Origin: Raillietiella orientalis | Taxonomy: Eukaryota | Direction of reading: 5' to 3' | Length of the DNA: 64,000 nt | NCBI GenBank assembly: GCA_036172245.1 | Contig: JAYWIR010000033.1 | Span: 434,001-498,000, forward strand | Shown here: positions 15,404-61,243 of the stretch, piece by piece | Numbering within the stretch: the stretch's first letter is position 1 | Layout of the letters: each line of letters opens with the position of its first letter | The notes under the pieces: model-generated | What the model saw: the letters and a program-made list of their open reading frames with translations, nothing else | The model's database searches: none | Told to the model about the DNA's origin: nothing | Program-made: the position numbers and the translations under genes

Positions 15404-15419
15404 TCACCGACTCGGCAGG
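15404..15419 (+). repeat. Family A TSD at the A3/C1 junction
   Basis: TCACCGACTCGGCAGG reads on into C ORF1 (SPTRQERSDLPTVKK). Confidence 0.9.
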
Positions 15420-21892: not shown

Positions 21893-21908
21893 CGCTCCGG
21901 AATCTCCA
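21893..21908 (+). repeat. Family B TSD CGCTCCGGAATCTCCA between B1 and B2
   Basis: Repeated at 27438-27453, where it reads into D ORF2 (TLRNLQDWDLFK). The left limit is uncertain by a few nt. Confidence 0.8.
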
Positions 21909-21938: not shown

Positions 21939-22121
21939 CTAACAAATAAACTTATACAATCTGTGACTGGACCAATAGTCCAGCCACGCCCTGGAAAGAT
22001 ATAGCCTGCCGGGCTACCGGTGCGCAGACCGGCGCGGTCGACCTCGGCAGCAGAGGGGAGGAGGAACGAAACAAAAAGAAAACAAAAAATAAACAAAAAT
22101 CAGGGAGGGAGCGGGAAGGGA

Positions 22122-33182: not shown

Positions 33183-33197
33183 CACCGGCTTTCGGCG

Positions 33198-38745: not shown

Positions 38746-40744
38746 GTCGACCAGGATCTCCTTATGGAGCTCCTGGAACGCATGGGTTTTCCATCCGTCC
38801 TCCGGTCTTACCTACGCTCCTGCTGGCGCAACGCGTATATCAATATTGGTTTCAGCGGCCGGCACGTGTACTGCGTGCCTGAGCGACGCGGCATTTAACA
38901 GGGTGACAGCCTGAGCCCCTTGCTCTTCAGCATCTACTTCGAGTTGGTGCTGAGGGCATACAGGGTAACTCTGGCAACTCTGCCGAGCTCGTGTGCCGGT
39001 ACGCCTGCCGTGTCGGCCTATGCAGACGATCTTCTGCTGCTGCTTCCCGGGTACACCCCGGCGAGTGCGCTCGAGGACTTCTTTGAAATGCTGCGCCGCG
39101 AAACGGGCCCTAAGGTAAACAGGGCGAAGTCGTTCATGGTCTTCGTCGGTTCGGCGTGGGCTGAACGGTCGGACTGGATCTTCTTGAGGATCCCCACGGG
39201 CAGGTGATTCAAGTACCTTTGCGTTCGGTTGGGGGACTTCTGCGCAGCAGAAGCCCTGTGCGACCGTCTCCAAAAGGCAGCGTTGGCGATTGGTCCGTTC
39301 CAAGAAAGCAAGTGCTACTTGCAAGAACGGGCCGCGGTGTGGAACGCGTTTGCGGCCCCCCTCTTTGGCCCCCTACTTTAGGTTTGCCCCGTCCCTTATT
39401 TCATTCCAAAACGAGCAGCGAACCTCCTGAGGACAGTCCTTTGAGGCAAAAGGAGGTCCCGTGTGAGGCTCAAAGACTTGTGCGCTCCACGTAAGGACGG
39501 TGGACTTGGCGTACTTACGCTGGAGCGCATGGAACTGCAACTCCAATTCAGGACGCTCGACCTCGCGGCCGAATTGTGGAACACGCCTTGATGCGTTCCA
39601 GCACGCCTCCTGGCCCAACGAGCCTGCGGATCCGGCAGACTTTTGTCGTTTCTGTCTGCGCGCGTCTGCTGAAGAGCACACTGTGGCTCCATGCTGCGAC
39701 GCATCCTCGTTGCGGTTCAAGAGAACGCCTGGATCTCCTGCCTTCCAGGGAACTACTCTGCCTGGTTGCACGAGTCAGTCTCCACCTGGGAAAAGATCCA
39801 CGTTCTGGCGAGCACAAGGAACACTTGCCTGAAAAGGTACGTCCGCTGGACGCTGCAGGAGATCGTGCAGTCCCACGACAAGCTTCTGTGGGCCTTGATA
39901 ACCCCCCTCGCCACATTGCTGACACTCCTTGTGAATGCCAGGGACAGTAGCAAGCAGGGGAAATGGACCGTGTCCTGCACGATAGGAGGCAGGACACAAT
40001 CGATAAAGGCGTGGACATCTCGGCAGCTAGCGGACCCTGCGACGCCGAGTGTCCCGCTTAACGGAATTCCACGCTAGAGCGAGCTACTCGGACTATCTCC
40101 GGAGGAGATGAAGTGGCCCCCAGCGTCCTGGAACAGTGCATTCCTCCCCCTGAAATGGCAGGATGTGGCGTTGATTGTGGTACTCTGGGGATAACCATTC
40201 AAAGCACGCCTGCACCACACCACCCGGGGGGCTGTGGATCCTAATTGTGACCGGTGTGGGGAAAAAGAAACACTCCCTCACCTTCTCCTTGATTGCAGAG
40301 CCGTCCGCCCTTTGTGGGATCGTCTCGCGGCGATCCTGGACTTGCGCGGATGCGGCATAAAGGACGTTTTAAGGAGCCTCTTCTGTAGTGACGCCCTGTC
40401 CCCGCCCGCTAGTGTAGCAGTCCTCTGCTGCATGAGAGGAATAGTGGCGGCTTGGAACGCCACCAGAAGAAGGCGTCAGCCAACCGGCAAAGCCTTACAC
40501 TGGACTCGCCTTTTCGCGCGCAGTGTCTGCAAGTGGCGCCACTTAGGCGCTAAAAGGACTCAGCTTGTGCGGATCCTTGACAGGATCTAGAGGACCTGTC
40601 CACGCGCACCGTGATCCCGTCCCCGCCCTCCCACCCCTACAACATTTGTTCCTCCCCACATTTGAGCTTTTGGTTCCTTTTTGTTTTTCTTTATTCCCCA
40701 TCCCCGCGCATCGGTAGGACCTCTCCGGCATGGAGCCGGTAACC
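38726..40744 (+). mobile_element. Element G, degraded 3' portion (RT from KAFD, zinc finger, partial 3' UTR)
   Basis: AFDCVDQDLL, SAYADDLLL (38920-39207), CDRC..LPHLLLDC (40234-40590). Confidence 0.88.
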
Positions 40745-40800
40745 AGCAAGCTGTTTTGGAGTGGTGAAACTTCGAGTTCGCCACTCCAAAACAGCTGGCT
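40745..40800. repeat. Inverted repeat, 24-bp arms (22/24 match), at the G/H junction
   Basis: agcaagctgttttggagtggtgaa ... ttcgccactccaaaacagctggct. Confidence 0.9.
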
Positions 40801-41416
40801 TTCTCCACATCGCGAAAACACTTGCGCATTTTTCCAGTACAGCGCGGGAGCCGTTCTCATCCATCCGCACTGTTGTCCATGTTAGGTGGACCACAAAAGA
40901 GTGGTCCACCGTGTGTGGGAGTGAATTCCTGCCCTCAAATTGTACAGGCGTGCAGAGCATTTTGTGGGTAAGAGCTGCATGCTTGCAGATGAGGTTCGCC
41001 AACTGCCCACCGCTGCGTATTGACAGGCAAAGAATTTCATGGTCGCCAATGCCTATCTTTTTGATGGCATTGCAGAAATTTCGCGCCCTTAACGGGGAAT
41101 ATAAATTTCCGACCTTGTACAGGAGGGCCGGATTGTAGCCCTCCTGGATGTAGGATTGTATCTCGGCGATGACATCGGGCGTTTCCGCCGCTGCCACCGC
41201 GCTCCAGGCCCTCGCCGTAGTGTCGGGGCAAGGTTCAGAAGTAGCAGTGGGGCGTGATCCCACCTTCTTTGGCTTAAGAGACGCGGTCTTCCCGCCTTCC
41301 TTACCTTAAATTGCGGCGTTCACAGGCATTTCGGCCTGTCAACGTCGGCGAAACACACTCGAAACACCAGACAAAAAACTCCCTATCCACGAAGCGCACA
41401 ATAATAGCGTCCGCCG
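40777..41416 (-). mobile_element. Element H, 5' UTR plus ORF1 N-terminal fragment
   Basis: RAWSAV..EGYNPALLYKVGNLYS..SIRSG is homologous to B/E ORF1. GGCGGACG motif at the 5' end. Confidence 0.8.
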
Positions 41417-41736
41417 TTTGTCAACCGATAAACCGAGATATTTATTATTTTGAATTGTTACAAAAATTAAATAATAAAGTCTTTAAAAAATGTTTTCTGT
41501 GGGAGAACACTGAGTTCTCCAGTGCACTCAAGTTCGGTTTTTATTGTGAAAGGTAAACGCCACCTTGTCGCCGTCTCCAAAGAAATCTTCGTCTAGTGGA
41601 TGGCGTCCCTGCATCTTAGGCCTCTTCTTCTTGCGTGCCACCTTTGCACAATACCGCGCAAGCAGCAGAAGACTGGTAGAGACGCAGCTGGGTGCAGGCC
41701 GTCACTCAGAAAGCGGAGACGGTAAATGTCCTTAGG
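41417..41736 (-). mobile_element. Element H2, short 3'-end fragment (ORF2 C-terminus plus AT-rich 3' UTR)
   Basis: FLSDGLHPAASLPVFCCLRGIVQRW resembles the ORF2 C-termini of B and G. Ends AATAAAtatctcggtttatcggttgacaaa. Confidence 0.7.
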
Positions 41737-42336
41737 TTCGCTCTCGGAGCTGCTTGTGCCAGCGGATTCCCCTGCGGTCGACGAGGAGGAACGCGCCACT
41801 CTTGACTTGATCTTCACGGCGGAAGAAGTGTCTTTCGCCATTGCGGGCCTCAAGAAGCGCAAGGCGCCAGGTGAGAATGGTCTGCCTGCGGAGTTCTTCC
41901 AGTGCTTCGCGGCGGAACTCATCCGCCTGGTGCTAAGGATTTCTGCGCTGATGCGAGAGACGGGCAATGTCCCGGCCTCGTTTCGCTTAGCAAGGGTGCG
42001 AGTCTTGTTTTAAGGCGGAGACATGCGCCATTTCAGCAACTGGTGTCCGATCACCTTGGTGAATGCGGACGTCAAGTTGTTCTCCAGGCTCTGGGTCGCG
42101 CGCCTAAGCAGGATCGCTGGATTCTTGGTAAGTCCGGAGCAGTCATACCCTGTTCCCTAGCGGTCCATGGAGGCGAACCTGTTCTTCGCGCGCACGTGGC
42201 TCGAGCTGTAACTTTGCGTGGCGCACGACAACCAGGCATCCGCATCTGCGGCTGCCAGGGCAAGGCGGCGCTTCATTTGGCCTGAGGAATTGCCAGGTGC
42301 CTTGGCCTCCACGGTAGATCTTCGCAAGGCGTTAGA
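41737..42336 (+). mobile_element. Element F (C-related), RT N-terminal part up to DLRKA(L/F)D
   Basis: KKRKAPGENGLPAEFFQCF, NWCPITLVN, TVDLRKALD. The frame resumes at 57757. Confidence 0.85.
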
Positions 42337-45300
42337 TGTTCACCCGGATTTCGCCGAGGCGTTCATTGTTCAATAAACATTCACAAAGACGTGCAGTGGC
42401 TGGATTATTGCTACAGCCACGCACGAAGAAACACATAGCCTGCCTGGTCACCGATTCGCAGACCGGTACGGTCCACCACGGCAGCGGGGGGAAGGGGGAA
42501 ATACAAAAAACAAAACAAAAAAGAAAAAAAAAGTTAATAGGGTAAGGGAAGGGATCACAGTTGCTGTTGGGGCCGTTGCATCCTTTGCAGGATGCCGGCA
42601 AGCTCCTTCCGTATTCCTGGATCCAGGTGGGGCAATCCGGACGCCCCCTCCAGGAACTGGGAAGCTTGCTGGATCGCATCCTGGTCGTTTGGTCCTCCCG
42701 TAGCCTTCCTCCAGGCGGCGACAATCCCGCAAAGGCAGCACAGGGATGCTAACGAGGTCGCTGACCGAATGGTGTCGGCAACGAAGAGAACTTTCAGCAC
42801 GTATCTGCAGTTGCCGCAGGGGATTTCGATGACCGCGGCAAAGCGGAGACAAAGGGGCCGAAAGGCAACAGAATCCACTAGCAGGTGGGGGAGGGACTCC
42901 CGTTCACTACACCTGACGCAATTGGGGTCCACCGATTCCCAGGTCCAGTGGTGACGGCGGGCGTTGCAAGGGAGTCCCCAGTACTGCAACAGAAATGCCA
43001 ACTCCAGCCATTTTAAGGAGAGGGTGGAGGTGTTCATTAGTACCGGGGGCCACTTCAAACGTTCAATGGGAACGTCGAGCAGCCCGCCCCAGCGAAGAAG
43101 ACCATGGAGAGTCGTACTCGGGGTGCGAGCGTCAGTCAGCTGACCCGTCTTCCACTCTCCTATCTTCTTCTCTTTTCCAGAGATCGTTACTGTAACCTCC
43201 CACTTCGCCGCAACATTGCTATCCAGATCTTCCATCAGAGAGGGCAGCGCAGCAGCGAGGAGTGTTCTTCCTGCCCACGCTCTCTTCTTTGCATCCCCCA
43301 TGATCTCTCAAAGCTTGCAACTTCTGTAACTTCCAAAAAGGAACCTTCGTTCCTGTTGAGAGCGTTGCATGCCGAACTGTCCCCACGTGCGAACGGTTTC
43401 CGGCAACCAGGCACTACCGTTCAAAGGGCGACAGGTGAACAATCCTGGGTTTTTCCGATACAGCGCAGCCAACCTCCGTAGCTAAAGTCCGCATCGGCTG
43501 ACGCGGCGGCGGAGTGGAAGAAACGACGCCAGTCCTGTCTTTCCGGTGGCTCGCTGGAGGAGAAGACGTGCAGGGACGCACCAACAGGTGCACTACAACT
43601 CTAAAACAAGTGCCGAAATTTGGAACTGGAACTGAAGCTCCAGCCGCTCCAGCGTCAGGAGCCCCAGACTACCGTCCCGACGAGGAGCGCACAGGTCCTT
43701 TAGACGGATTCATGCTCTCCTATTGCCCCAAAAAGCAATACGGAGGTGGTCCTCTGTCCGCTTTTTAATCCTCACTGTAGGGGGACAAAGAAAAAGCTGG
43801 GGACGGAGGAGAGGAGCCGCGAACGTGTTCCAAACCGTGGCCGGTTTAAGCAGGAAAAACCTGCCTCCTCGAAACGGGCCGATCGCTGTCTCTACATTTG
43901 GGAGGCAGCCGGACCACGCTTCCGCAGGGGAGTAGTCCCCCAACGGCACAGCAAGCTACTCGAAGTACCTCATCCTGGGAATCCCCAAACGGACCCAGTC
44001 CTGCAGCCCTGCCCACGCCGCACCAACTCGCATCACGGACGACTTCGCCCTGTTTACCGTAAGTCCTGTTCCGCGATACAGCAGGTCGAAGAACTCCTCG
44101 ACCGCCAAAGCCGCGGTGCACATAGGGAGCTAAAGCAGAAGGTCGTCCGCGTACGCTGAAACAAATGACGTACCGGCACAGTCGTGCGGCAGGTGCGCCA
44201 GGGTTCTCCTGTACGCTCTCAGTACCAACTCAAAGTAGGTACTGAAGAGCAAGGGGCTCAGGCTGTCTCCCCTTTGGATCCTACGCCGCACCGGCACGCC
44301 GTGCACGGTCTGCCCGCTGAAAGTAACGTTGATGAGCGCGTCGCGCCAGCAGGAGCGCAGATAGGCCACTAATGAGGCCAAGAAGCCCAAGCGTTCCAGA
44401 AGCTCCAGCAGGAGATTCTGGTCGACGCAATCGAATGCTTTCCGCAAGTCGATTGCGACCGCAGGGGCTCCCTCCCTCTCACGACCAAATAAACCCTAGC
44501 TGGCGCACGCACCGGAATTCCGGCTGCGCACCAAGCTCCTTTCATGTTGTAGATTTAGCCAGGTGGAAGCGTGGAACAGGTTCGCCTCCATGCTTTGCCA
44601 GGGAGCAGCATGTATCTGTTCCGAGCTGATGAAGATGTTGACAACCCGTCCGAACCTCTCTGTCTAAACCATAGCTAGCAACTTGGCATCCGCATTCACT
44701 ATGGTGATGGGACGCCAGCTGTTCATGCTTCTCAGATCTCCTCCCTTAGGGAGGAGCCTCAGCTTTGCCGAACGGAACGAGGCGGTAACGTCATCTGTCT
44801 CGCGTGTCACCAAGGTGAGTTGCTATAACAAAGGGGTAAGCTCAGCCGCGAAAGTTTGCTAAAAGTCCGCGGGTAGGCCGTTCTCCTCTGGAACCTTGCG
44901 CTCCTTCAGCTTCCCGATGGCCGAGAGGATCTTGTCCATCGTAAAAGGCTCGTCGAGGGTTTTTCTCTCCTCCTCTTCGATCGCTGGAGCGCCTTTTGGA
45001 GGCAGAAGTCGTAAAAAATTTCTCTCAGGAGGTGCCCTCGCATACAGGGAGGAGTAGTAACTTCGCAGCAGGCCGCGGATTTGGGCGAGTGCCGAGTGCT
45101 TTTGGCCCTGATCGTCCAGCAAGCTGGCCGATCCGGACTGACAGGCTTGTTTCTCGGCTCTCGCTTTGTATTCCGTTAGCCTGCGGATGTCGGCGGTCCT
45201 GGCGTAATGACGGGCCTGCACATAGGCTCGTTCGTTACGGAACCCGGTCCCAATACTCGTAGGTAGGCGGTGCAGAGGGAACTGGTCGAAGAACTCCTGG

Positions 45301-45986
45301 ACCGACCGCTTGAAGCGGTCTCAATCCTGGAGTGTATGCAGCCTGAAGCTCTGTAGGAACGTGCGGAGAGGTTTCACCGCTTCCGGGAGGTTCAGTCTGT
45401 CCCCTGGGAGACGCCACGCTGACGACGAAGGGCCCCTGTCGCGCGGATGGATCTCGAGAACTATCGGGCGATGGTCGGACAGCTCGCACGGTAACTTGCC
45501 GCGCCTGCCCACGCGAGGGCACAGGTGCTCGTCAAGAAACACGTGGTCAATGCTGTCTTCCATCCCCGCGGCACTGGCCAACAAAATACAGGTGTGCACC
45601 GCCATGTACACCTCTTTGAACAGGTCACGCTCGGGATTCTGCCCATCTGGTTTAAGGCGAACGTTGAAATCCCCTGCAACCAGATGGGCATTCCGCACGT
45701 CTGCTCCGGTCAGCCAGTTGCGCCGGAGGGCGAGAAAAAATTCTTTTCTCGCCCTCCTGTTCATAAGGTCCGCGCAACTCGTTGCGTACACGTTCGTGAC
45801 GATTAGAAACATCGAGTTGTACCACCTGAGAGTCAGGTGGCCGACGCGACCGGCATTATCAAACTGTACGTCCTTTATTGGGGCCTCGATGGCTTGCGGG
45901 AGCAGGAAGGCGATACCGATTGATTTCGTGGTGCCACAGTGCCACAGCAGCCGTACTCTTGCGATCCGTTTGATCTCCCGCGCTCG
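42337..45986 (-). mobile_element. Family B' copy B4, 3' portion (most of ORF2 plus 3' UTR)
   Basis: GDFN, IDH, SDH (45321-45812), RKAFD..AYADD (44130-44447), CVRC..LPHLLVD (42555-43301). Confidence 0.9.
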
Positions 45987-47344
45987 TACAATGCAGACGT
46001 GGTTTTGCGTCTATACGCGCTAACGATCGGGCAACTTCCTGCCTGCGTTTTCGCTCCCACTTCTGTGTTCCTGTGCAATCCTCTAAGTAGCATAGTGCAA
46101 CATGGCCAGAACACAGAATAGTGTAGAAGAGGAAGCCACTGGATGCACTTCAGCTGCACTTGAAGTGCCCGCAAACTCCGTAATGGTTTCCTCGCCCCCG
46201 GTGAGGAGTTACGCCGCCGTTACCTCTTAAAGGCCAGGACCCTGCGATGCGGAGTTTCAGGCATATGTGTCATTAGGATACATGCCTACACTCCGTTATA
46301 AGGTCAGTGGGCCCCTTAACGGGAGAATCGGTCGTGAGCTCAAAGATAAGCTCGTCCGGATCGGCGTTTGCGAGGTGGAACACCTTGCCATAATGCCTGC
46401 TGGCAGGATGGAATATACGAAGATTCGGTGCAAGGACGCAGCACTTGTGCAGTGCCTTCTCCGTACGCCGTTGACCATCAACGGCAAGGAAGTCCTACCT
46501 ACCGCGATGGACGACTCTTTGTCGTTCAATTGTGCGACATCGAACCGGAAATCTCCGATCGCGATGTGGTTAGCGTGCTGGCGAAGTTTGCCACCGTGCA
46601 CGCCCTGTGGGTGAGGCCGAACCCTGTGTAGGATTTCTCCTTTGTCCACATCGGAGAAACCTCCGCGCGGATCACTCTCATGAACAGGCGTGTTGTGCCT
46701 TAGCAGCTGCTGGTGAACGGCATGGTCGTTCACCTGTGGTTCATAGGTCAGACTCACGCGTGCGAGCAGTGCGGCAAGGATGGGCACCAAATTAAAGAGT
46801 GCCCCTCTCCAAGATGCCGCTATTGCAAAGATTACGGGCACGAGATCAAAAAGGGCCCGGTACTTACAAAAAAAGGAGCCGCAGCGGAAATACGTCGGGT
46901 TCAAGAGACCACTGCACGAAAAGCCGCAGCGGCAAATAAAAAAAGATCGACCGTAAAAACTCGGAAGGAACAACGAGCGATCCGAGGATCAAAAGAAAGC
47001 TTCCCGCCCGCAACGCCCCGAAAAGGAAAAGTCACGGCTGGAAAGCCAATTAAAAAGGGGCGCGAGGGTTTGACGCGTGCTGTGCCCTCCCTCGCTGCCG
47101 AACTCGCAGGCACCTCTCCGAGCCACGTACTATGAAATCTTTGTAACAGCCTTGAGGGGAAAGTAGCAAAACAGGAAGATCGCTACAGTACGAAGAATTC
47201 TTGCCCCGTTCCGTTGTCCCTTGAGTTCCGGACAGCCCCGCTGCAGCGCAGGCCCCTTTGCAAAGGCTACGAAAGCCGTAAAAAGCAGCGTCGCGACGAG
47301 CAAAGGCACGCTGGATGCAGTCGCCCCATCGCCGACTCGGCAGG
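45987..47344 (+). mobile_element. Family C copy C2, 5' UTR plus ORF1 up to the A target
   Basis: GYMPTLRYKV, CEQCGKDGHQIKEC, CRYCKDYGHEIKK. Ends in TCGCCGACTCGGCAGG. Confidence 0.9.
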
Positions 47345-50300
47345 TTTCTTCAAGTCCCACAATGGCTGAAGTAAATTTATTTTTCAGAAATTTTTGTGCA
47401 AAAGCATTCATACTACAGTCTCATTCATACAATTTGAGCTGTTTTTACCACTCCGAAGTCCATGGGTTCACAAGTTCTGCACTCATGGCGCGTTTCCTGC
47501 TGTTTGGTTTCGGGCGTTGTCTTTTATCCACTTCAGGATGAATCCCTACGTCCAGGCTTGGATTTCCGTACAGTTTCTAATCCCGATTTTGCTCTAGAGA
47601 AGCCCTTGTAGGACCTCCATCGTTGATTCGGCTCTTCTGGCATTCCTCATTTTTCACCACCGCACAAGTATGGCGGTGATGAAGAGGGTGATGGTCGTCC
47701 TCACCATGGAATTGTAACAGGGAACATTACCATCCCCCTGAAACATCTAGGCGAGGATCTCCATCACGGATCTGTTCGTGAGACCGATGATCCTTTGCAG
47801 GATTAGCTAGTCATGCACCAATGTGGGACACGTCAAGGGGTGAAGTCTCGTGTCGTTGTCTCCACATGGCGTCCTGTCTCGAACTTCCCGTCTTCCGGTA
47901 TAGTACTGCGATCGGGATCCACTCTGGATTCTTCCATGATGAAACATCAGGAGGTCATCCTGCGTGCCCGGCGGAAGGTCACTCCTTTAAAGAATCGTGC
48001 AGATCGCTAGCAGCTTGATGCAGTCTCCTCCGTAGCGAACGGCGGCTTCCTGGAGGGCACAGATGTCACGGTCGTCTTCCCGAATTAATCTTCGTAGGTT
48101 TGTTTTGAATACCCTGGACCACGCGAAGTCGTTGTGGTTGATCCACACCTCGCGGGTCATGTGGGCAAACCTTCCAAACATTATCTCTATATACCTAAGT
48201 ATAAGAGAGCGATGTAGGTACCCTCCTCGTTTCTACTCCTGCATTCGTTGCACGGTAACTTTGGACCGCTGGTGGATCCAGCTTCTCGTGTCCGGCAAGA
48301 CAGCAAGCATCTAAATGATCACCAGGATGCACTCGTCCTGCCAGAGTTCCCTACTTCTCCTCACGATCTTGATTTTGTGCTTTCGCACCAGCCGTGTCTT
48401 CCTCGTCCTGGTTGGGTCGATTTTTTTCCATTCGCCTGCTCGGCCTAGCAGCGCAGTCATCAGGCCTTTCGAGTTGTTCAACCACAACGCGTAGGCCCAG
48501 TGCGCCGCATGCGGCCAGTCATCTCAGTGAGTGGCAATGTCCAGGATAGCTCACGTATCCATGATTTCTATGAAGTGTGCAAGCGACTTCATCCCGGAAC
48601 CGCCCTCTTCCCTGGGACGACACAGGGGTTTTAGTCGAACTCTTGGGCGATAGTGGTCCCACAGTGTTTTTCTATTCAGCTTGTCAAACTCCCTCGTGGT
48701 GCCCTTGTTCATCCTCGCCAAGGCCGCTCCGAAGAGCACTTTTGGAAGCAGTACTCCGTTCCATATGTTGGCCTTTCACTTCATTCCAAGGTCCGTTCGG
48801 GTGTACTTGGCTGCTTCCTTGGCCGTTTTACTCGAGGATCTCGGTCCACAATAGCTCCGACGCGGAGACGTCGCCAATGTAGACACCCAGGTACTTGGCC
48901 TTGTCCACCGTTCGGAATCCTCTCCCGCTAGAGGGAAGAGATCGAGAATTCCAACGGGCAAGAGCTGGCTTTTCTGGGGGTTGATCTTTAGACCCAGGCC
49001 TTGATCCATCAGGTCAACCACATCCAGAAACGCTCGTTGATTTCTCTATCCCTTGATAAAGAAGAGTAGATCATCAGCGTATGCCAGATGAATAAGACGC
49101 TGGCCATCGATTGTTATGCCTTTAAGTGGTCGGCTCTTCTCGATAAAGGACGACAACGCCTCCATGTAGATGACGAACAGCATCGGACTTAGCGAATCGC
49201 TTTGCCGGACTATCCGTCCTATGCGGATTACTGCCGTCTCCTGGCCGTTGATTTCTGATTCGGAAGTACTGGTTCTGAAGTACCACCCTCACGAGGTTGC
49301 TGAAGTGTTCCCGAAGGCCTAGCTTCTCCAGAACCTTCAGCAGCATCCCATGGTCGATGGAGTCGAAAGCCTTCTCCATGTCAGTGAACACCAGCTCCAG
49401 GTTTTCGGCGACGTATCGGCTGAGTCCAACAATGGCCTGTGCACACTTGACATTGTCCGACATGTGACGTCCAAGGACTGCACACGTTTGCACCGGAAAG
49501 ATGAGCTTCGACATGACCCTGCCTAAGCGGTTGGACCAGATCTTCGCCAACCACTCGACATTGGAGTTCAGGATTGAGATTGCCCTCCATTGAGCGATCT
49601 GGGTTGGGTCGCCTCCTTCCGGCAACAATCTCATCCTACTCTTGTAGAAGGATTCAGGTAGTCTGTTTCTTCACGGATCCATAGGGTCAACTGATGAAAC
49701 AAGCGCAAGTAGGCATGCAGATACCGCTGATAGTGCGTGATGGGTACACTGTCAGAGCCCGCCGCCACATCCTTGCGCAGTTGTCCAAAAGCAGTCTTCG
49801 CCTCGTCTTCGGAGAATTCGTTCTCCAGTCTGTTTCGCTGGAGGTCGTCGGTCCTCTTCTCGAGATAGCTCAGAAAGGCTTGTTGACTAGAGTGACAAAG
49901 ATGTGTTCGCTTGAAGTGTTTCGTGTAATGCCTGTGAAACGCTTCCACGATGTCCTCAGACGACTGTCGCTTTTGGCCGTCGTACTGGATGCAGAAGATA
50001 TCTGTTGCCAGATTTCTCTTCTCCAGCACGCCGACTTCCCCTTTTATGTTATTGAGGACGTACCCACTCTCGTACTGACCGAAGTACTTTGAGAGTAAGT
50101 GATTTTGGATGTTCAGCTACCGGTACGCCTCCTGCCTCAAGCGCCTATCCCCTAATTTCATATTCGCAAACAGGTGTATCCTGTGTTTCAAGCTGTCCGA
50201 GTCGGCGAATTTTCTGATTTTGGTGGTCTTCAGAATCGTCTTCAGAACATCCTGATGTAAAGGATGTGTCACGAACTAGGCGGGCATGCTGATGAGCGCC

Positions 50301-52893
50301 GCCCTGGTGCCTTGCCTCCACCGAGGATTCGGCGTTCTTACGGAAAACCGCACCAACGGGTGATCAGACAGAGTAGTCAACGTGTCTCGAAAACCCTGAA
50401 TGCGATTCCCTAGTTCGGTGCTGTGCAGGACGTGATCGATCGGCTTGTGACTGGCTGTTCGCCACACCAGTCCGAGCTCGTCGGACAGCCGCCGATACTC
50501 CGTCCTTCCTCTGGCGTCTTGGGAATGACTGATCTCATCCAATATGTTGAGATAGCCAGCAACAATCACGTCGTCCTTGCGGCGACCTTTTCACGAAGTG
50601 CTGCATGCAGCGTCTCCGCCCAACGATGTTTCAGCCTGTGCGGCCCGTACACGTTTACCAGCTTAAGGTAAACAGTAGCGGACCAGCCCAATCGCACGCC
50701 GATGATTCGTCCGTGTTGGGGACAGAACACTTCCAGAATAGTTGAGGCCAAGTGGTTCTTGATTAGGACCCCCACACTCTGCGTGTTCCTTTTTTCCTCG
50801 CTGACGAACATGTGCCTGTTGAATCGCAGTTCCATTTACTGACTAATCTCGCGACCCATCTTGTGGGTCTCCTGCTGGCACACTATGTCTTGTTGTGCAA
50901 TGGTCCGCACAATCCTTTTTCTTTTTCCCTGGCCGAGCACACCCTTTACATTTCAGGAGGCGATGTTCAGCCTCCTGGCGGTCGATAGGGAAGAGGCCAT
51001 AAAAGGGGGAGACCTATTTCTTGGCCTTCCTGAGTCTCTTTTGTCTGAGAGAACGTGCTCTTCCAGACAATGAAGAAGCAGCTGGCTTCTCGCTGCTGGC
51101 GGCACTCTCAGTTCCTGTGAGGTCGGTTATTTCCGCTTCCTCCGTCAAGTGTTCGGCCCGCGCGAACAATTTTCGAGATAGCGCCACTATCTCGACCTTG
51201 GCGCAGAAGTTGGTTTTTAAGTCGAGAAGCTGTTCCTCTAGCTTCCCGCGCTTGGTGACTTCCACAAACTGGTTGACCTTCTCCTGTGCATTGCAGAACT
51301 TCTGGAAGATTTTCTCTTGCTGGGAATCGCTGTGCACCTTTAAGACTTCATTAGCCAGTTATGCCAACTTCTGTGTAGATTGCAGGGCCTCTTGCGACAC
51401 CGTAGTGGCTTCGGCTATTTCTTCTCCCGCGCCTTCCGGCGCTAGCTCCATCTTCTCGCCTTCTTGCTCTTCACCTTCCAGGATAAGAAAGGTTTCTTGC
51501 TCCTTGACGTGCATGCTCCTTTTTTTTTTCTTCCCTACCTGTATGAATCCGTCTTTCTATACCGGGAGGGCTTCTTTCAGCTTCTTCGGTCTTCCTGCAT
51601 TATGAGGCTGTTTCGCATCCTTAAGGTTTCTCTCTCTCCCGGGAGAGAGACCTCGAATCCTTCTGCAGTCTGCAAACTCTGGACAGCTTCATTTGGCATG
51701 TCCGTGTTTCTTGCAGAAGGAGCACACCTCCGGCTGCGGGCAGTTTAGGACTTGATGTACTACTCTGCCGCAGTTGAAACAACCACACGTTGGGCAAGCG
51801 CTGGTCTGGTGGCCGAACTGCTTGTATCCGGTGCAGAATACCGGTTGTTCCCGGTGATCCACGTTCACTCCCTAGGATTGTTCGTCGAGAACGGCTAATC
51901 CAGGGATCACAGCTCCCTCTTTCAACTTCATTTTGGCGATTATGTCGCTGGAAAATTATATTTTTAGAGAACTTCTGGAATTCAAGGGCCAGAACTTCCC
52001 CGTACTGTTCCAAAAAGTTCCACACCGTCAATTGCGGTATCAGGGTGGAGTTGCCGTTCAGAAAGACGGTTGTGAATGGCATTTCGCCAATACCACGAAC
52101 CATCCTCCCTTGTATATTGATCCCCTTCTGGATCAATCGCTTTCTAATATTTTCACAGTCTGTGAAGAATGTGAACCCGTTGTTTGCTGGTATGATCGCC
52201 TGTATGGGATCAAAATTGATGTCCGTTTTGACCGAGGGACAGATACACCTCCCTGATATTATTGAACTTGATCAGTTCAGTCTTGAAAATGATAAGCTTC
52301 ACATTCGGCCCTAACTCCACGATCGGCCGATCCACCTTTTGGACTTTTCCGCATAGCGACTTCCCCAATTCTCTTGGCGGGTGGACACTCGCTTTTCCAG
52401 CCGCCACCGACGCATAGGAAAAGGGCTGCGCCGCCGCAGTCGAACAAAATGGCGTCTCGCCCTGCACCGCGTAAACGCCCGCGGGTCCAGCCTGGGACGA
52501 CGACGCCGTGAGCGCAACCGTCCACGTCGCCACCGTTGCTGCAGCGGGCATCACCCTCGGCATCGCCGCCTCAGGCACGACCTTCCCGGCCGCGGGCACG
52601 ATCCTCGGCGTCGCCGCCACGGGCACGACCCTTGGCATCGCCGCCGCCGGCGCAGCAATGCCCGCCGCGGGCGCGATCCTCGGCATGCCTACCACCGCCT
52701 CGCCGTTGCCCCACGTTATTTCCATGGCTTCCATGGAGGACGACGGTCTTTCCACTCGTCCTCCAGGTGCCTGCATCCTGGCAGCTGGTCTTGCTGCACG
52801 GGACGACAGCAGGTCTTCCGCCGTGATCTTCTCGGCGCTTCTTTTGTAGTTTCGTCTGGAAAACTTCCCTTGTCCGGGCTCACACGATCACAA
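47345..52893 (-). mobile_element. Family A copy A4, degraded, about 50 nt shorter at the 5' end, TSD on both sides
   Basis: Colinear with A2/A3: ORF1 52776->51014, ORF2 from 51000. TSDs at 47329-47344 and 52894-52909. Confidence 0.93.
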
Positions 52894-55840
52894 TCACCGA
52901 CTAGGCAGGAGACGAGGAATCTCTCGACTGTCAAGAAGGTGACTTCGTTGCCGTTTGTTGAAGGCGTAGCGAAAGCAACGCCCTCAGAGAGAGCAGCGAA
53001 AATCCCGGAGGTTTCCGCAACTATTGTCGCTCAAGCCTCCGGAAATAGCGAAGTCGAATGGAAGGATGTGGAAAGGAGGAAAGAAAAATCTCCCAAAAAA
53101 GCTTCGCAACATCCACCCTTGAGCTCTTCCAAAGAAAAAAGCAGTCGCGGGAATACGAAAACACGCGCGGCTTGTGCCTTTTCTCAGGAAAGCCAGCGCC
53201 TTTAACGCGTGCAAGTCCGCTTCTGTGACCGCCCAGAAGACCATTCCGGTGCAATCGGACGGATGCAAGCGCACTTCGATCGTGCGAGCATCACACTACG
53301 CAAAGGAGTCCCATAGCGCCGCTGAACGAGCGCCCGATCACATTAGTGAATTCGGACGTCAAGTTGTTTTCGAAACTTTTGTTGGCGCGGACGGGTAGGA
53401 TCGCGGAATCCTTGGTAAGTCCTGAGCAGACGTACGCTGTTCGTGGGAGGTCCATGGACGCGAATCTCTTGTTCATCCGCACATGGCTGCAATTGCAGCA
53501 TCGTCTGGCGGTAAAACGTCGTGCGGAAGCGACGCCTTCGATCTTCCATCGATTGAGGCGCGGGACGCAAATGGAGACAACGGAAGCCTTGGCGGTTGCA
53601 GTCGATTTGCACAAAGCTTTCGATTGCGTGAACCAAAACTTTCTTCTTGAGCTTTTGGAACGTCTGGGTCTTCCGGCATCCCTGTTGGTGTACTTGCGCT
53701 CCTGCTGTCGCCACGCGATTACATCCATTGTTTTCAGTGGCTGTCGCGTGTATAGCGTGCCGGTACGACGAGGAATTAGGCAGGGTGCTAGCTAAAGCCC
53801 GCTGCTCTTCAGCATCTATATTGAATTGGTACTGGAGGCTTACAGGCTGACGCTAGCTAATCTGCCGAGCTCCTGTCCAGGTACGCCGGCCGTGGCAGAC
53901 TATGCCGACGACCTGCTTCTCCTGTTGCCCATGTCTATCCCGGCGACATCGCTTAAAGACTTCTTTGAGTTGATTCGTCGCGGTGCGGGCGTGAGCGTTA
54001 ACAGGAGTAAGTGTATGGTTGTTCCGGTGGGTGCGACGTGGAAGGGGCAGTCCGACTGGATCGACTTTGAGATTCATACGGGCAGGTACCTCAGGAACTT
54101 TGGCGTGCCGTTGGGCGACTTCTGCATCTCAGAAGCGTAGTCGGGCTGCCTTGGAAAGGCAGAGCGTGCACTTGGCCCGTTTTCAGGAGGCGAGTGAGTC
54201 TTGTGGGAACGTGCCTCCTTGTGGAACACCTTCGTTGCCCCCTCCTCCGCCTCCTGGTTTTTGTTTGTGCACTCCCCCAGGAAGTCAAAGTTTGGGCGCA
54301 GCGCCTTCTACGCAAAGCATTGTGGGGCGCTGCAAGATCCCGTGTTAGACTTAGAGACTTAGTGGCGGCGCCTCAGGATGCAGGCTGGGGCATCCTAGAC
54401 TTGAAAAGCATCGAGCTGCATATGCAGTTTCTAATGCTGCGGCTCTGTGCCAAGATTTGGTGTACGCCGTGGTGCTCACCCGCACGACTCATTCTAAGGC
54501 GCTGCACGGGAAGCGAGGGACTGCTTTCGTTGCTACCTTACTTTCGGCACACAAGAATAGGGTTTGGCTTCCCGCCGAGGCAGCTGTTCTCACTGCTGGA
54601 AGTCCAACGCTGGATATTTTGCCGCCCCATGAACATTAATGCGTGGCGGCAGTAATCTTCTTCATCGTGGGCAGCTTCCGAAGGAACGCCTTCGAAAGAT
54701 CTTCGATGCCTGCGACTTCTTTTCAGTCATCAAATGGACGGAGTCATGAAGGACAAGAAGATGTCGGATCATCTGGCCGCCACACCACTCGCCGCAGCGC
54801 TGTCTGCTTGCAGGGCAAGCAACGACGGTTGCCTATCGGCGGAATGGGAGTTCTTCTGCAAAATAGAGGGAGTCAGTAAGCTTCTCGGCAGCTGGACGAC
54901 AAAGTAGCTGGTGCAAGCAGCCACTCCTCGGAATCAAGCGAAGGGCCTGCTTTGATGCAGCGAACATTTAAGTGTGCATCTTGAGGAGATAGAAATTCCC
55001 CCCGTTTATTTGGACAGCTTCGTGTTTCTTCTACAGTGGAAACAAGATGTGCACAATGTACAAAATTTTTGTACATTGTGCATCACACTGTAATAAACAG
55101 CGAAGTATCGTTTCCGAGGGAGCTGCTTTGCCAAACTGTTTAAGGTGCCTAGAGATCGAGTCTTTTCCGCACCTTTTGCTGGACTGCGGTGACCTCCGGG
55201 AACTTTCGCGAAGGCTCACTTCGGCCATTATGCTACAAGGAGGCACTGCCATTGATGTGCTGCGGCGCTTCTTCAGCAGAAATGGACGTTTGGTTGGCGC
55301 GATTGCCGAAACCATATGTTGCGTTCGCTCCATCGTGAAGGCTATCTACGCCCTGGAGTTGTCAGCGCAGCGAAGGTGGGCTAGTCTGCTTGCAGCTTAA
55401 TTCATGGAGAAGGCTTAAAGGTGGTCTCATCTTCGTTACAAGGTGAAAGAGGACATCACCGGCCTACATCGCCGGTTTTCATACCTTTGAGAACGGCGTA
55501 ATCTGGTGACCCCTGCGACCTCTCGCCCACCTATACTAAGTCTCCGTTCGCTCGGTAAAATTTCCGGTGCCCATGCCTTTATCCCCGTGTCTTCCAGAGC
55601 GATCCCAAAGACCCTTATCCCGTCCTCCTTATTCATGTTTTCATTTTATTTTGGTTTCTTTGTGTTCCCCGCCCTCCCCACACCGTCCGCAAAACTGTTA
55701 CTCTTGCCTGCGTGCCAGCAATATTCTCTTTATTCTTGTTCGGTCGTCCATTGGAAGTTTGGTTCCCAACTGATTTATTTTACATGATTTTTTTTGTTGA
55801 TGTAATATGCAATAAACGCCCCGTCTTGACCACGTAAGAA
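52894..55840 (+). mobile_element. C2 3' portion, with an internal deletion that removes the APE
   Basis: Matches C1 15404-15870, then C1 17497-20004; YADD near 53900. Confidence 0.92.
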
Positions 55841-57756
55841 ATCTCTTGCGCCTGTTGTGCGGAGATCACGTGGATCTCCTGCAGCAGCGCAAGTTCGTAC
55901 GACTCCAGAACGGCGGTCATGTCTCGTCTCCTGCCGTCGTCTGTCATTGCGTTCACGTTCTAAACGGCGTTGCGCAGACGACGGCAAAAGTAGATTCCCG
56001 GCATTACTGCTGGGGAGATTAAGGTGTTGGGGAGCCCTCCTCTTCCGATGAGGGCGGGATGTCCATGGTAGTTTCGGCCTTCTCAGGCACCTGAGGCACC
56101 TGTTCGGCCTCCACATCTTCCATCCCCTTCGTGTCCACGCTTGGAATTCCCTCAAGCGACGGGTCCCGCGAGTTTCCCACGCTCATGGCACCCTCATTCG
56201 CAGATGCCATCTCTTCCCCCTCGACGGGGGAGACGAGCTTCCTCGGCTTTGTGGACTTACGTCCAGCCTTCTTGCGGGGTGCCGGGGAAACGGAGGCTGC
56301 GCTTCCGGCCTCCACCTCAGGGTCGGAAGTGATGGACTCCTGAGGGGAGGCCGGACGCCTTACGGCCGTTTTGCCAGCCTTGCATGGTTTGAGCTGCAAC
56401 AAGGCCGCCAGTTCCTCTTCAACTCGCGCGAAGGCTACGTCATCGATGGTGGTGTCGATGACGGACGCCGCCGCCGGCTCGCTCTTCTCGCTGTTGACAG
56501 AGTCAACAGAGGAGTGGTCGCCGGTAGCGGCAAGTTCTTTCTGGCAGCGTTTGCCAACATCGACAACGCATTCGACGACGAAGCTGCAGATTTTAATTAT
56601 CGCGCTAACCTGCTCTTTCTCCTTCTGTTGGTAGGCGATTTTTTTCTCCAACCTCCTCTCGTTCTTTGATTTTTTGGCCGTAGCCACCTGCCACCCATGC
56701 TCCTGGCTAGCTTTCTTGACTTGTTCGGCGTTGTTCGCCGAGTTCTCGGGTGCGGCCTGGGCCTTGGGAGCGGGTGGCACAGCTGTCTCCGCCAGCCTTT
56801 TCTGCAGAAGCCGGGCGCGTTTTTTAAGGCTTCTCTTGGAAACCACACGCACTGCTGCTTCTGGGCACACCCCCCTCGTGTGACCCATTGTGCCGCATAC
56901 TTGGCACTGCACGTTGGGACACGTCTTTTTGAGCTGGCCCGACGTTTTGCAGAAGCCACAGTATTTCGGCTTCCCCACATACCAGAGGTCAACGGTTTCG
57001 CCTTCGAACACCAGATTGTGTGGAAGAGTGCACCCCTCCCGAACGGTTACGCGCGAAGCCGTGAGGCCGTGTTGCAGCCCCGTGTAGTCCTCGAAAGGAC
57101 TAACTTTCGTCCACTGCGCGTGGACCGTTCCGAACTGTTCCAGAGCAGCGCGAACCTGTTCTTTGCGCATTCGCGCGGTTACGCCTAACAGGTGGACCAC
57201 CATGCTGCGGTCTGCCGTAGTAAGAAGGAGCCTACGCGTCCCTATCACAAAGGGGGTTTTGAGCAGTCGTTGGGCAAGCTCTGAATGTTTGCAGATGATC
57301 TTAACGTATTGACTTTCGCTGCGGATGGTCACAGCGCGGACCTCCTCCTCTTTCACATCGAGAGCGCGCATGCCCTTCGAAAAGGCGCGCGCTATCTAAA
57401 GAATAGAGATTGCCTACGTTGTAGAACAATGAGGAATTGTACCCCTCCTCTACATAGGCCGACAATTCCGCCGCGGCTGCAGCGATGGCGCCGACACAAC
57501 GGTGCTCCACGCCCGCACTGCAGCGGGGACCGATTCTGTGAGGGCGGATGCCCCACCTCCATCGCCTCTAGGGGCGACGTTGCCGCCGCTTCCTGGCTCT
57601 CCTTCGCTTCTGGGGGCGGCGTTGCCGCTGCCCCCGGGCCATCTTTGGTGATCGCGTCAGGCATCGCTGCCTGATCGACCACCGATCCACACTACGCTTG
57701 CACTGGGGGAGACTTCCTGGCACAAGGTGCACCAAGAATACACGTCCGCCCTGGAG
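55841..57756 (-). mobile_element. B4 5' portion (ORF1 plus APE start)
   Basis: ORF 56019-57371 with CGFCKTSGQLKKTC and CQVCGTMGHTRGVC. ORF2 ATG at 56004. Confidence 0.92.
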
Positions 57757-59845
57757 TAAGAAAGGCGGTCGACTGCGTATATCAGGATATCCTCCTGGAG
57801 GTCCCGGAACGCCTCGGGCTTCCGGTGCACCTCGTGGCGTATATTCGCGCTTGTTGGCGCCACGCACTAACTTTCATCCCTTATAGCGGCTGCCACGTGT
57901 ACAGCGTGCCGCTGCGGCGGGTCATCAGCCAGGGCGACAGTTTAAGCCCATTGCCCTTCAGCATCTTCTTTGAGTTGGTGCTAAGTGCGTACAGGCTGAC
58001 GCTGGTCAACTTGCCGAGCCTTTGTCCAGGAACGCCTTTTGTGGCGGCCTATGCTGACGACCTGCTTCTTCTTTTACCCATGAGCACCCCGGCGTTCAGT
58101 CTCGAGGATTTCTTCGAGCTGATTCGCCGGGGAGCGTACGTGAGCGTAAGCAGGAGCAAGAGAGTGGTTGTACCTATTGGTGCTGCGTTTAAGGGGCAGT
58201 GCGACTGGATCCGCCTGTGGATGTCGACCGCTTCGTCCACTCAAAATCTGGGCGATCCGCTGGGGTGCATCAGCCCAGTGGAAGTGCGGTCGGACTGCCT
58301 TCGGAAGGCTACGAGTGCGCTGAGCCCGTTCCAGCATGGCAGGTTCCTCCTGTCGAAGCGGGTCGCGATATGGAACACTTTCGTTGCCCTTCTTTTGCGC
58401 CCTCTGTTTTTGGTTAGCCCGCCAACCTACTCGGTGAAGATTCAGGCGCACAGCCTGATTAGGAACGCTTTTTGGGATCCTGCGAGGTCCAGGACCCGCC
58501 TGAAAGCCTTGGCAGCTCCACGACGGGATGCTGGCTTAGGCATTCTGACGCTGGAGAGAATCGAGCTGCAGGTGCATCTTCGAATGTTGGCCCTTTGCGC
58601 CAACGTTTGGTCCACTCCTTTCTGCGCTCCTGCGCGCCTGCTCCTGCGGCGCTGCACCGGCAGCGAAGGACTTCTGTCGCTGCGTCCGCACACGGAGCAC
58701 CCCACGACAAGATTCGGTTTCCCTTTGAAACCACTCTACCGGATCCTGGCACCCCAGGAAAGGATCTCCTGCCGCCTCAGGAAATTTGAAGCCTGGCGGC
58801 AGGAACCGTTGCATGGCTGGGCAAAGCACCAGGATGTTTCCCTCCTGGAACCCTGTTGCGTTCACCTCTCCCCGTAATGCAGGGTGGATGATGTCTGAAG
58901 CAGCCAGGAGAAGTGGACCCCCCTGGCCGTCACCCCTCTCGCCGACGCACTGTAAGCCCTCAGGGTAAGAGATGACAGCTTCGAACCGGCGAGATGAGAG
59001 GTCGCCTGCACCATTGGAGGAACAACACGACCTATTGGCGGCTGGAGGACTTGCGAGCTGGCAGACGCCGCCACGCCTATTCACATCTCGAAGGGACTCC
59101 TCCGGTAGAGCGAACACTTGAGTGTGTCCGCCGAAGAACTTGTGATCCCTCCCTCTTGTTTGACACTTCTGCCTTCCCCCTTTCGTGAAAGCAGGACTTC
59201 ATCATGGTGGTGCATTGGGGTTTTGACTCCAACCAGCAGAAGAACCGTGTTTCCGGGGGAGTTGTCTACTTAAACTGTAAGCGGTGCGGGGAAATGGGAA
59301 CGCTTCCGCACCTGCTTATGGACTGCAATGCCCTTCAAGGACTTTGGCGGAGGCTGGCCTCAGCTCTCCTGCACCAGGGGGACACCGCGAGGGACTTGAT
59401 GCGCCGCTTCTTCACGCCAGGCGGCCTGTCTATGAGTGCTGTAATTGCAACCGTGTGTTGCACCCGTGCCAACGACAAGGCCCACCGAGAGTTGGAGAAG
59501 CTGACCATTCATCCTCAGACCAACTGATTAGCCAGCACAAGCATGTCGTCGGCTGCCGAGTGGGCCCATCTGCCACAGGACGTAAGGAGAGAGATCGTCG
59601 GCATCTATCGCCGGTTTTGAATGGAAGGAACGGACTCGCCAAAGACCCCTCTCCTCTGCCCACCATATTTTTATTTTACATTTTTATAGTAGTGTATTTG
59701 TGGTTCCCTTTCTCCCGTAGCGGACTTTCGCCATAACGACCTGCGTGTCGGGGATCCCACCCCCTTTGTATCTTGTTTTCCCCATTGTGAGGTACCCTGT
59801 TCTCGGATAGTTCTTAACAAACGCCTTGGAGCACTCAAGTTACAA
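57757..59845 (+). mobile_element. Element F 3' portion (RT from KAFD, zinc finger, 3' UTR)
   Basis: ORF 57825-58877 with SQGDSLSP and AYADD; CKRC..LPHLLMDC (59204-59527). Confidence 0.9.
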
Positions 59846-59885
59846 ATAGCCGCCATACAGAGATTCGTTCGATCTAGTGCGCTCG
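59846..59885 (-). mobile_element. 40-bp island of B-type APE coding sequence between the F and C3 insertions
   Basis: atagccgccatacagagattcgttcgatctagtgcgctcg aligns without gaps to B3 36810-36849 atagccgccctccggagatccgttcgatctcttgcgcttg. Confidence 0.8.
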
Positions 59886-61243
59886 CACAGTGCAGACGTG
59901 TTTTCGCGTCTCTCCGCGTCCGCAATCGAGCATCTTTGTGCGTGCGTTTTCGCTAGCACTTTTGTGTTTCTTGGAAGTGGACGGAGCCGCGTTGTGCAGT
60001 ATGGCTATTTCTGCTAATGGATTGAAGAAGACAGCCGTCGAACCCAATTCAATTGGAATGGAAGCGGCCACATCCTCCGTGACAGTTTCCCCGCCTTCGA
60101 TTAAGCGCTACACCGCCGTCACCTCCCAGGGAACAGAACCCTGCGATGCAGAGTTGCAGGCTTATGTGGCATCCGGCTACATGCCCACACTTCGTTATAA
60201 GGTCAATGGGTCCCTTTACGGGAGGAACGAACGTGAGCTCATCGATGAGCTCGTCCGGATCGGCGTTCGGGAGGAGGAGCTCCTTGCCATCATGCCTGCG
60301 GGCAGGATGGAATACACCAAGATTCGCTGCAAAAACGCGGCACTTGTGCAGCGCCTTCTCCGTACTCTGTTGTCCATCGGTGGCAAGGAAGTTGTGCCTT
60401 CAGTGATGGATGACTCCTTTGTCGTCCAATTGTTAGACATCGAGCCGGAAATCTCCGACCGCGATGTCGTAAGTGTGCTGGCGAAGTTCGCTACCGTGGA
60501 CGCTCTGTGGAGGAGGCCAAATCCTCTGAAGGTTTCTCCTCTTTGCACATTGGACAAGCCTCCGCGAGGATCACCATCCCGAACAGGCGTGTTGTGCTCC
60601 AGCAGCTGCAGGTGAACGGCACGATCGTTCACCTGCGGTTTCTAGGACAGACTCGCGCGTGCGAGCATTGCGGCAAGGGGGGACACCGAATAAACGAATG
60701 TCCCACCCCGAAATGCCGCTATTGCGAAGAAACCGGGCACGTTATAAAAAAGTGCCCGGTCCTTGCAAAGAAAAGAGCAGCAGCGGAAGTTCATCGCGTC
60801 CAAGAGACCAACGCACGAAAGGCCGCTGCCTCCAAGAAAAAGTAGTGTTCGCGGAAGCTTGGCAAAAGAGCCAAGCAATACGCGGCAATACAAAAGGCGC
60901 CCCCGCCCGCAACGTCACAAAAGGGAGAAATCGCGGCGATGAAGTCAATTAAAAAGGGGTCTGAGGGTTCGACGCGTGCCGTGCCCGTTCTCGCTGCCGT
61001 AATGGGAAACACCTGTTCAAGCCTGGAACCGTGGAATATCCGAAGAACCTCGGTAGGAAAGGTAGGTAAGCAAGAAGATCGCCACAGTGCGAAGACCTCC
61101 AGCTTTAACCCGCTGTCTCTTCCGATACCGCCAAACTCCCAGTCCAACGTAGGGGTCTCTGCGGCGGATACCAAACCCGTAGCAAGGCGCGGCGCGCCGC
61201 GCAAAAACACACTGCAGGCAGCGGCATCTTCACCGACTTGGCA
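59886..61243 (+). mobile_element. Family C copy C3, 5' UTR plus ORF1 up to the A target
   Basis: GYMPTLRYKV, CEHCGKGGHRINEC, CRYCEETGHVIKKC. Ends in TCACCGACTTGGCA. Confidence 0.9.

Follow-up and report, generated by a model that had tools for sequence, protein, structure and literature searches.

How did a 64,000-nucleotide stretch of the Raillietiella orientalis genome (assembly GCA_036172245.1, contig JAYWIR010000033.1, positions 434,001 to 498,000; hereafter the window) come to hold long interspersed nuclear elements (LINEs) lying one inside another, several layers deep? From the letters of the DNA, an original prediction had proposed that positions 41737 to 59845 form a complete nest, F(+) > B4(-) > C2(+) > A4(-), in which letters denote element lineages, numbers denote copies and each element is interrupted by the one named to its right. 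We confirmed that the nest F > B4 > C2 > A4 is real: its order, strands, duplications and empty site hold, and the three inner rejoining points stand to within 1-15 bp of bookkeeping. Each inner insert, once removed, restores the reading frame of its host or leaves a match to an uninterrupted copy in the window. We consider it highly probable that the nest was built by successive sequence-specific insertions of LINEs into LINEs of other lineages.

Structure of the nest

The innermost element, A4 (47345-52893, minus strand), is a near full-length but decayed A-family LINE comprising open reading frame (ORF) 1, an apurinic/apyrimidinic endonuclease (APE) and a reverse transcriptase (RT); it was traced by broken minus-strand tblastn hits over ORF1 and ORF2 and its ORFs are disrupted at 25 or more points. 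Its identity is 88.5% to A1 and 85% to both A2 and A3. A target-site duplication of 16 bp flanks it, the left copy being TCGCCGACTCGGCAGG (47329-47344), which codes for S-P-T-R-Q of C2 ORF1, and the right copy TCACCGACTAGGCAGG (52894-52909), with 14 of 16 positions identical. Rejoining at 47344/52910 brings the two halves of C2 ORF1 together in frame: the left piece reads ...LDAVAP-SPTRQ and the right piece SPTRQ-ETRNLSTVKKV..., the same ORF1 tail that is found to the right of the A array in C1. Allowing up to 3 mismatches, the window contains 7 occurrences of this 16-mer where 0.78 are expected, and none of 100 shuffles reached 7; six of the occurrences are A junctions and one (at 23646) is not.

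The host of A4, C2, spans 45987-55840 on the plus strand. Its 5' part (45987-47328), with the 5' end and an ORF1 containing a CCHC region, is 73.6% identical to C3 59886-61228 and gives a plus-strand tblastn hit to ORF1 at 46380-46859. Its 3' part (52910-55840) holds the end of ORF1, a deletion, the remaining RT and the 3' end, and is 89% identical to C1 15420-15841 plus 17498-20000. The duplication around C2 consists of ATCTCCCGCGCTCG (45973-45986), within the APE codons of B4, and ATCTCTTGCGCCTG (55841-55854), identical at 10 of 14 positions. The joint at 45986/55855 is borne out not only by this duplication but also by the uninterrupted copy B3, in which the empty target ATCTCTTGCGCTTG occurs once, at 36836-36849, and which aligns to the two B4 halves at 84% and 87%, the halves meeting at 36836-36858. 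In the B frame the site codes for E-Q-A-Q-E-I, just past the LLQEI motif of the endonuclease. At 53329/53330, 420 bp rightward of the A4 site, C2 lacks 1657 bp that correspond to C1 15841-17498 and cover the endonuclease and early RT; self-BLAST and tblastn together suggest an internal deletion. Its 3' region also contains a 33-bp palindrome (97%) at 55050-55082.

B4 in turn occupies 42337-57758 on the minus strand. The 3' part (42337-45972; minus-strand tblastn), consisting of the 3' untranslated region, the ORF2 C-terminus, the RT and most of the APE, is 75% identical to the uninterrupted B2 21963-25560 and 84% to B3 34510-36858, and its 3' terminus aligns with those of B2, B3 and E. The 5' part (55855-57758), with the APE N-terminus, ORF1 and the 5' end, is 87% identical to B3 36850-38725; there, minus-strand tblastn hits cover APE residues 45-111 (peptide ...LALLQEIHVISAQQAQE) and ORF1. 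B4 is flanked by cgcaaggcgttaga (42323-42336), coding for R-K-A-L-(D) in RT motif A of F, and agaaaggcggtcga (57759-57772), coding for R-K-A-V-D; the copies agree at 10 of 14 positions. A 15-mer duplication had been proposed here: a duplication is indeed present, its best register being 14 bp and one base off. Rejoining F at 42336/57773 restores motif A from a left piece ending ...VDLRKAL and a right piece beginning RKAVDCVYQD..., and the two pieces map to adjoining positions (~17791 and ~17793) of C1, which is uninterrupted there. Separately, over its 3'-terminal 1.3 kb (33200-34510) B3 diverges from B4 far more than it does elsewhere (84-87% identity), whereas the alignment of B2 with B4 continues through that part at 75%; B3 looks like a mosaic of two subfamilies.

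Could a repeat-rich region have been misassembled into an apparent nest? Among public sequencing runs, one DNA run contained a fraction of 0.46 of the words sampled from the stretch, and no RNA run was listed. The public contigs of that DNA run are short (330 of 518 pieces on 41000-60500 are less than 90% alike) and none spans a layer; among the contig joints listed over the same interval, none skips a whole layer. Against an artefact, the duplications are diverged and, like the level of decay, particular to each layer, the halves are in frame, and a chimera would not give three successive layers matching duplications of 14-16 bp on their two sides. We therefore regard misassembly as extremely unlikely.

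F itself spans 41738-59845 on the plus strand. Its left piece (41738-42322) belongs to a 5'-truncated C/F-type LINE and holds the N-terminal part of the RT up to motif A (RT residues 439-582 by tblastn at 41777-42208; 76% identical to C1 17196-17656). The right piece (57773-59845) continues from motif A through the C-terminal domain to the 3' end, is collinear with C1 17825-19436 at 66%, and gives a plus-strand tblastn hit at 57726-58679. Homology to the C1 ORF starts sharply at 41738, which marks the 5' truncation; no target-site duplication was identifiable at this end. At the other end F was predicted to run into another B-type APE, and it does: 40 bp of B-type APE coding sequence on the minus strand (B5; 59846-59885) lie between F on the left and C3 on the right and match the B3 endonuclease region 36810-36849 at 33 of 40 positions, counted by eye. 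The last 14 bp of this remnant are the C3 duplication ATCTAGTGCGCTCG, and C3 begins at 59886, at the canonical C site. The region would thus be a nest at least five deep, B5 > F > B4 > C2 > A4, the outermost layer of which is half documented because the 5' end of F is truncated and has no duplication. The left flank of F (41480-41736) was considered as the missing left part of B5 and set aside, since it shows no alignment with B-type 3' ends.

Between F and F2, the host of B3, lies an isolated B-type ORF1 N-terminus fragment (40694-41305, minus strand), 45% identical to B2 ORF1 (E 4e-30) and 37% to B4 ORF1. A 57-bp palindrome (84%) is located at 40745-40800, near the broken end of F2.

Independent insertions at the same sites

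We then asked whether each lineage uses a single site, taking all copies within the 64-kb window. Five A copies lie at three C loci, namely an array of A1-A3 in C1, A4 in C2 and A5 in C3. The 3' end of each of the five directly adjoins the same 16-mer of C ORF1, and the 5' junctions vary: A1-A3 have their full length, A4 has 48 bp less and A5 (61230-63438) is 5'-truncated to 2.2 kb. C3 resumes after A5 (63439-64000) at the equivalent of C1 16022, not 15420, so that ~600 bp of target are missing at this site, and there is no right-hand duplication. A fixed 3' junction combined with a variable 5' junction is the signature of sequence-specific target-primed reverse transcription. C is inserted at the same 14-mer of the B endonuclease gene in three hosts, two of which are only 65% alike. 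B3 and B4 both interrupt RT motif A. Altogether, target-specific insertion, at the same nucleotide and in one orientation, was observed for A at three loci, for C at three loci and for B3/B4 at two loci.

These insertions are independent events because the inserts are far more alike than their hosts. C1 and C2 are 89% identical (Kimura two-parameter distance, K2P, 0.116-0.124), whereas their hosts B1 and B4, interrupted at the homologous B site, are 65.5% identical (K2P 0.466). B3 and B4 are ~89% identical up to their 5' ends, where windowed identity falls to 64-73% (38743/57774), the level at which each host, F2 or F, resembles C1; the hosts are therefore different elements, hit at the same motif-A site. 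A shared F+B composite, suggested by BLAST extension of the B3/B4 match to 58129, was ruled out by the same windowed identity, which attributes the extension to RT conservation. The view that B-type and C/F-type lineages target each other, in a cycle and not a ladder, is supported by both sets of independent events.

Sites without an insert were also found. The C target is perfect in B3 (36836-36849) and diverged in B2 (~25552), and the RT motif-A site is unoccupied in C1, C2 and E. The version in E, CACAAGGCGTTCGACTGTGT (28342-28362), is almost identical to the occupied F site, those in C1 and C2 being more diverged.

A different account is that the shared junctions were inherited, C+A or F+B composites having been copied by segmental duplication, gene conversion or retrotransposition of a composite RNA, in which case site specificity is not needed. 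It would explain why K2P between A1 and A4 (0.125) is close to that between C1 and C2, why A4-A5 (0.278) is near C2-C3 (0.330), and why A is present in all three C copies of the window. A match of distances is, however, also expected if A colonises each new C copy soon after it lands. Moreover, A1, A4 and A5 differ at their 5' junctions, terminal branches are unequal within pairs (A4 0.090 versus A1 0.035; C2 0.081 versus C1 0.033), the C1 and C2 inserts are 89% alike in hosts that are 65% alike, and the similarity of the B3 and B4 loci stops precisely where insert meets host. Inheritance of composites is hence unlikely, and we favour repeated insertion into the same sequences.

In every case the insert is antisense to its host, as seen in 6/6 insert-host lineage pairs: A in C, C in B, F in B, B3/B4 in F-type elements, B1/B2 in E, and E in G. 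Were orientation random for each pair, all six would be antisense with a chance of ~1/64.

Alternatively, integration might be directed by chromatin, for instance to a centromeric or heterochromatic domain in the manner of centrophilic retrotransposons, with nesting a by-product of crowding. The whole 64-kb window is LINE sequence, and similar-looking nested clusters are found at centromeres, as far as the available parts of the reports describe them (PMC3446292, bioRxiv 10.1101/2020.06.13.149070, bioRxiv 10.64898/2026.09.17.752431). Such targeting leaves unexplained why independent events share the identical insertion nucleotide, why orientation is fixed and why the array spacers are of one sequence, and we consider it very unlikely as the basis of the nest.

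Divergence and decay of the layers

Ages were estimated without a consensus, from FastTree terminal branches and bootstrapped three-point estimates with 95% intervals. Divergence had been predicted to rise outward; no such rise is seen in the F-B4-C2-A4 nest, where terminal branches are 0.090 (0.080-0.101) for A4, 0.081 (0.063-0.099) for C2 and 0.079 (0.061-0.097) for B4. Since these three intervals overlap, no inner element stands out as older than its host either. The value for F (0.34) is uninformative, this element having no close relative. In the younger neighbouring nest, terminal branches do rise outward (A3 0.017, A2 0.018, A1 0.035, C1 0.033, B1 0.043). Mismatches between duplication copies number 2/16, 4/14 and 4/14 from the inside outward.

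Decay was also scored as the minimum number of ORF disruptions per kb, which is 4.5 for A4, 4.0 for C2, 3.0 for F and 2.7 for B4, compared with 1.1-2.0 for the younger A2, A3, B2 and C1 and 5.3-8.3 for shuffled sequence. On the internal branch of the A tree, changes at codon positions 1/2/3 are 20/18/63 and 11/11/35, and this third-position excess indicates purifying selection in the active A lineage. On the A4 terminal branch they are 50/37/45 and 43/44/62, i.e. near-neutral decay. Most simply, each new copy would have been colonised shortly after landing, and the finished nest would then have decayed as a unit; the highest decay being that of A4 fits rapid filling of this kind, and is no proof of it.

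Several observations weigh against, or set limits to, the reading of successive site-specific insertion. The outward age gradient is missing from the nest, and the innermost A4 is the most decayed by ORF disruptions. C2 is still not full-length after A4 is excised, because of its 1657-bp internal deletion. F has no 5' junction, and its insertion into B5 is represented by one junction and 40 bp. The near-perfect B target in E stands unoccupied. All C copies in the window carry A, which leaves the A site without an empty-site control, and the A1-A4 distance equals that of C1-C2 (~0.12), as a duplicated C+A composite would give.

Class and content of the elements

Self-BLAST shows long matches throughout the window, which is filled by related retrotransposon copies (GC 52-61%) and has 0 matches in Rfam. 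In Pfam searches, a single 745-residue frame of A2 (ORF2) matches Exo_endo_phos (PF03372, E 5.6e-17) followed by RVT_1 (PF00078, E 7.2e-31), the upstream ORF1 of A gives a weak zf-CCHC match (E 2.9e-4), and B2 has a zf-RVT scoring below the Pfam cut-off. Among solved structures, the closest to A ORF2 is human LINE-1 ORF2p (E 1.2e-47, collinear over residues 410-733), compared with E 3.5e-25 for R2 and 1e-4 for a group II intron RT. With the A proteins as queries, tblastn gave each copy's strand and order of domains and showed B, C and F to be collinear with A; RT nucleotide identity between lineages is 65-75%. Because of these domains, the best solved relative and the shared domain order, all elements can be assigned on sequence grounds to the L1-like, APE-type non-LTR (long terminal repeat) retrotransposons with two ORFs (a CCHC ORF1; APE and RT in ORF2). 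Duplications of 16, 14 and 14 bp with a variable 5' end, together with the 5' shortening of A4, A5 and F, are further features of LINEs.

The nearest database proteins are 23-31% identical and mostly unnamed, a further protein search with a frame of B2 gave no hit, and a protein atlas search returned generic LINE clusters. No match named for Chlorella, Coccomyxa or Chlamydomonas appeared in the protein searches, the Zepp sequence itself not being among those compared. None of A, B, C and F has a poly(A) or A-rich tail, their 3' ends running directly into the duplication. Small 3'-terminal hairpins are present in young copies (z only -1.2 to -2.1) and gone in the nest copies, and were not used as evidence. 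A ORF1 contains imperfect 27/48-bp tandem repeats (3687-3872, 9352-9508, 14935-15146, 52545-52684), whose number differs among the A copies.

A model of reciprocal insertion

We propose that L1-like APE-type LINEs inserted successively by target-primed reverse transcription, with endonucleases, or DNA-binding parts associated with them, that would each recognise one sequence within the coding region of another lineage. On this model, A targets the S-P-T-R-Q codons of C ORF1 and duplicates 16 bp, C targets the E-Q-A-Q-E-I codons in the endonuclease gene of B and duplicates 14 bp, F targets the same gene 26 bp from the C site, and the B3/B4 subfamily targets RT motif A, (H/R)-K-A-F-D, in elements of the C/F type and likewise duplicates 14 bp. 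As every target lies in coding sequence, each insertion breaks a host ORF and so disables the host. No microhomology between element 3' ends and their targets was seen by eye; specificity is therefore most likely encoded in protein, and the endonuclease probably sets it.

An intact junction of upstream flank plus target would persist on the 5' side of each insert, at the place where the first, bottom-strand nick is expected, and the site would remain open to re-insertion. Head-to-tail arrays with one duplication copy between members, such as A1|A2|A3, would result. The three 16-mer spacers of the A array are all identical, and terminal branches drop toward the 5' side (A1 0.035, A2 0.018, A3 0.017), which suggests that the array grew toward the A 5' side.

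A broader picture, to which we give somewhat less than even weight, is that six or more L1-like lineages (A, C, F, B3/B4, B1/B2 and E) form a closed community in which each has its own 12-16 bp target in a conserved coding motif of another, entered in antisense. The motifs would be the ORF1 tail, the endonuclease just after its catalytic QE, the endonuclease-RT linker and RT motif A. The lineages would propagate only by disabling each other, a cyclic parasitism of transposon on transposon that would build self-expanding, gene-free and perhaps centromere-like LINE islands.

If this is true, the window offers a clear example from nature of transposons that have no niche but other transposons, reciprocally so (B into F; F and C into B), and a system in which competition and coexistence of mobile elements could be studied. 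It would also provide a sequence-based route to self-growing repeat islands, as proposed for centromeres in some algae, and a naturally occurring set of APE/RT enzymes that are close relatives and have each been retargeted to another long site. As the related lineages differ in their 12-16 bp targets, comparison of their endonucleases and flanking domains could show how the specificity of APE-type LINEs changes, which bears on the design of site-specific insertion tools.

The neighbouring nest

Positions 1-33195 resemble the right half of another, younger nest, G(-) > E(+) > B2|B1(-) > C1(+) > A3|A2|A1(-), of which the window includes the right-hand junctions, the left-hand halves lying beyond its edge. 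Its first part (1-15419) is the head-to-tail array of three A copies, with a period of ~5639 bp and identical 16-bp target copies between them. The 13-mer TCCGGAATCTCCA is present at both the B1|B2 (21896-21908) and B2|E (27441-27453) boundaries. Because it matches the homologous B3 coding sequence at 10 of 13 positions, it can be read as a duplication of an E site at codons T-L-Q|D-W-D; the B1/B2 subfamily thus seems to target the B-like element E, at a site different from that of B3/B4. The 3' end of E (~30453) abuts G at codons P-R-G-F-G. The possibility that E and G are one B-type element with an inverted half was dropped, as E carries the host-derived B1/B2 duplications and abuts G at a different codon. 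At 33195-33200 the 5' end of G adjoins the 3' end of B3 via an 11-nt spacer, CTTTCGGCGAT, which was matched to no target.

Comparison with known systems

Human LINE-1, the best structural relative of ORF2, resembles the elements described here in moving by target-primed reverse transcription, in the size of its duplications and in its 5' truncation. Its 3' end carries a poly(A) tail, and its preference for targets is loose. The window elements differ from it on both counts, as they have neither the tail nor the looseness of target choice.

Site-specific LINEs provide a second comparison. Tx1L has the DNA transposon Tx1D as its target. LINEs of the Tx1 and R1 clades (R1, TRAS/SART, Keno, Tx1L) have an APE endonuclease, exact sites, fixed orientation, occasional tandem insertion into a regenerated target and multicopy targets, according to the introduction of a published paper (PMC4640811). 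The window elements share all of these traits, a likeness judged on features. The difference lies in the targets, which for the Tx1 and R1 clades are genes for rRNA, snRNA or tRNA, telomeric repeats, microsatellites or a DNA transposon, and which in the window are conserved coding motifs of sister LINE lineages, hit reciprocally.

The Zepp and ZeppL L1-type LINEs of green algae (Chlorella, Coccomyxa, Chlamydomonas) insert into existing copies and form nested clusters of tens to hundreds of kb, one per chromosome, as described in the accessible portions of several reports (PMC3446292, bioRxiv 10.1101/2020.06.13.149070, PMC9940879; for targeting of existing copies see also bioRxiv 10.1101/2024.02.27.582245). 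Clusters of copies nested in earlier copies are likewise found in the window. Zepp, however, is described as one family targeting itself, and its arrays as consisting mostly of 5'-truncated 3' ends, as far as the portion of that report dealing with them goes (bioRxiv 10.1101/2020.06.13.149070). The window instead has at least 4-6 diverged lineages, each with a different exact site in another lineage, and most copies are full length or nearly so (5.5-5.6 kb), without poly(A). Centromeres of nested LTR retrotransposons (the “omega-state”) also contain several insertion strata recoverable by in-silico excision, with inserts on both strands; these are LTR elements, and in the case described in the available text their duplications are not widely shared, so that insertion is not sequence-specific (bioRxiv 10.64898/2026.09.17.752431).

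By analogy, targets placed in catalytic or conserved motifs, which a host element would find hard to change, may follow a logic resembling that of homing endonucleases. In full-text searches of open-access papers and bioRxiv, a scope that did not take in the original Zepp papers or supplements, we found no description of reciprocal exact-site targeting among the coding sequences of several related LINE lineages. Nested LINE clusters and site-specific LINEs are already known and the elements described here are not a new class; what appears to be new is the reciprocal targeting of LINE by LINE among multiple lineages.

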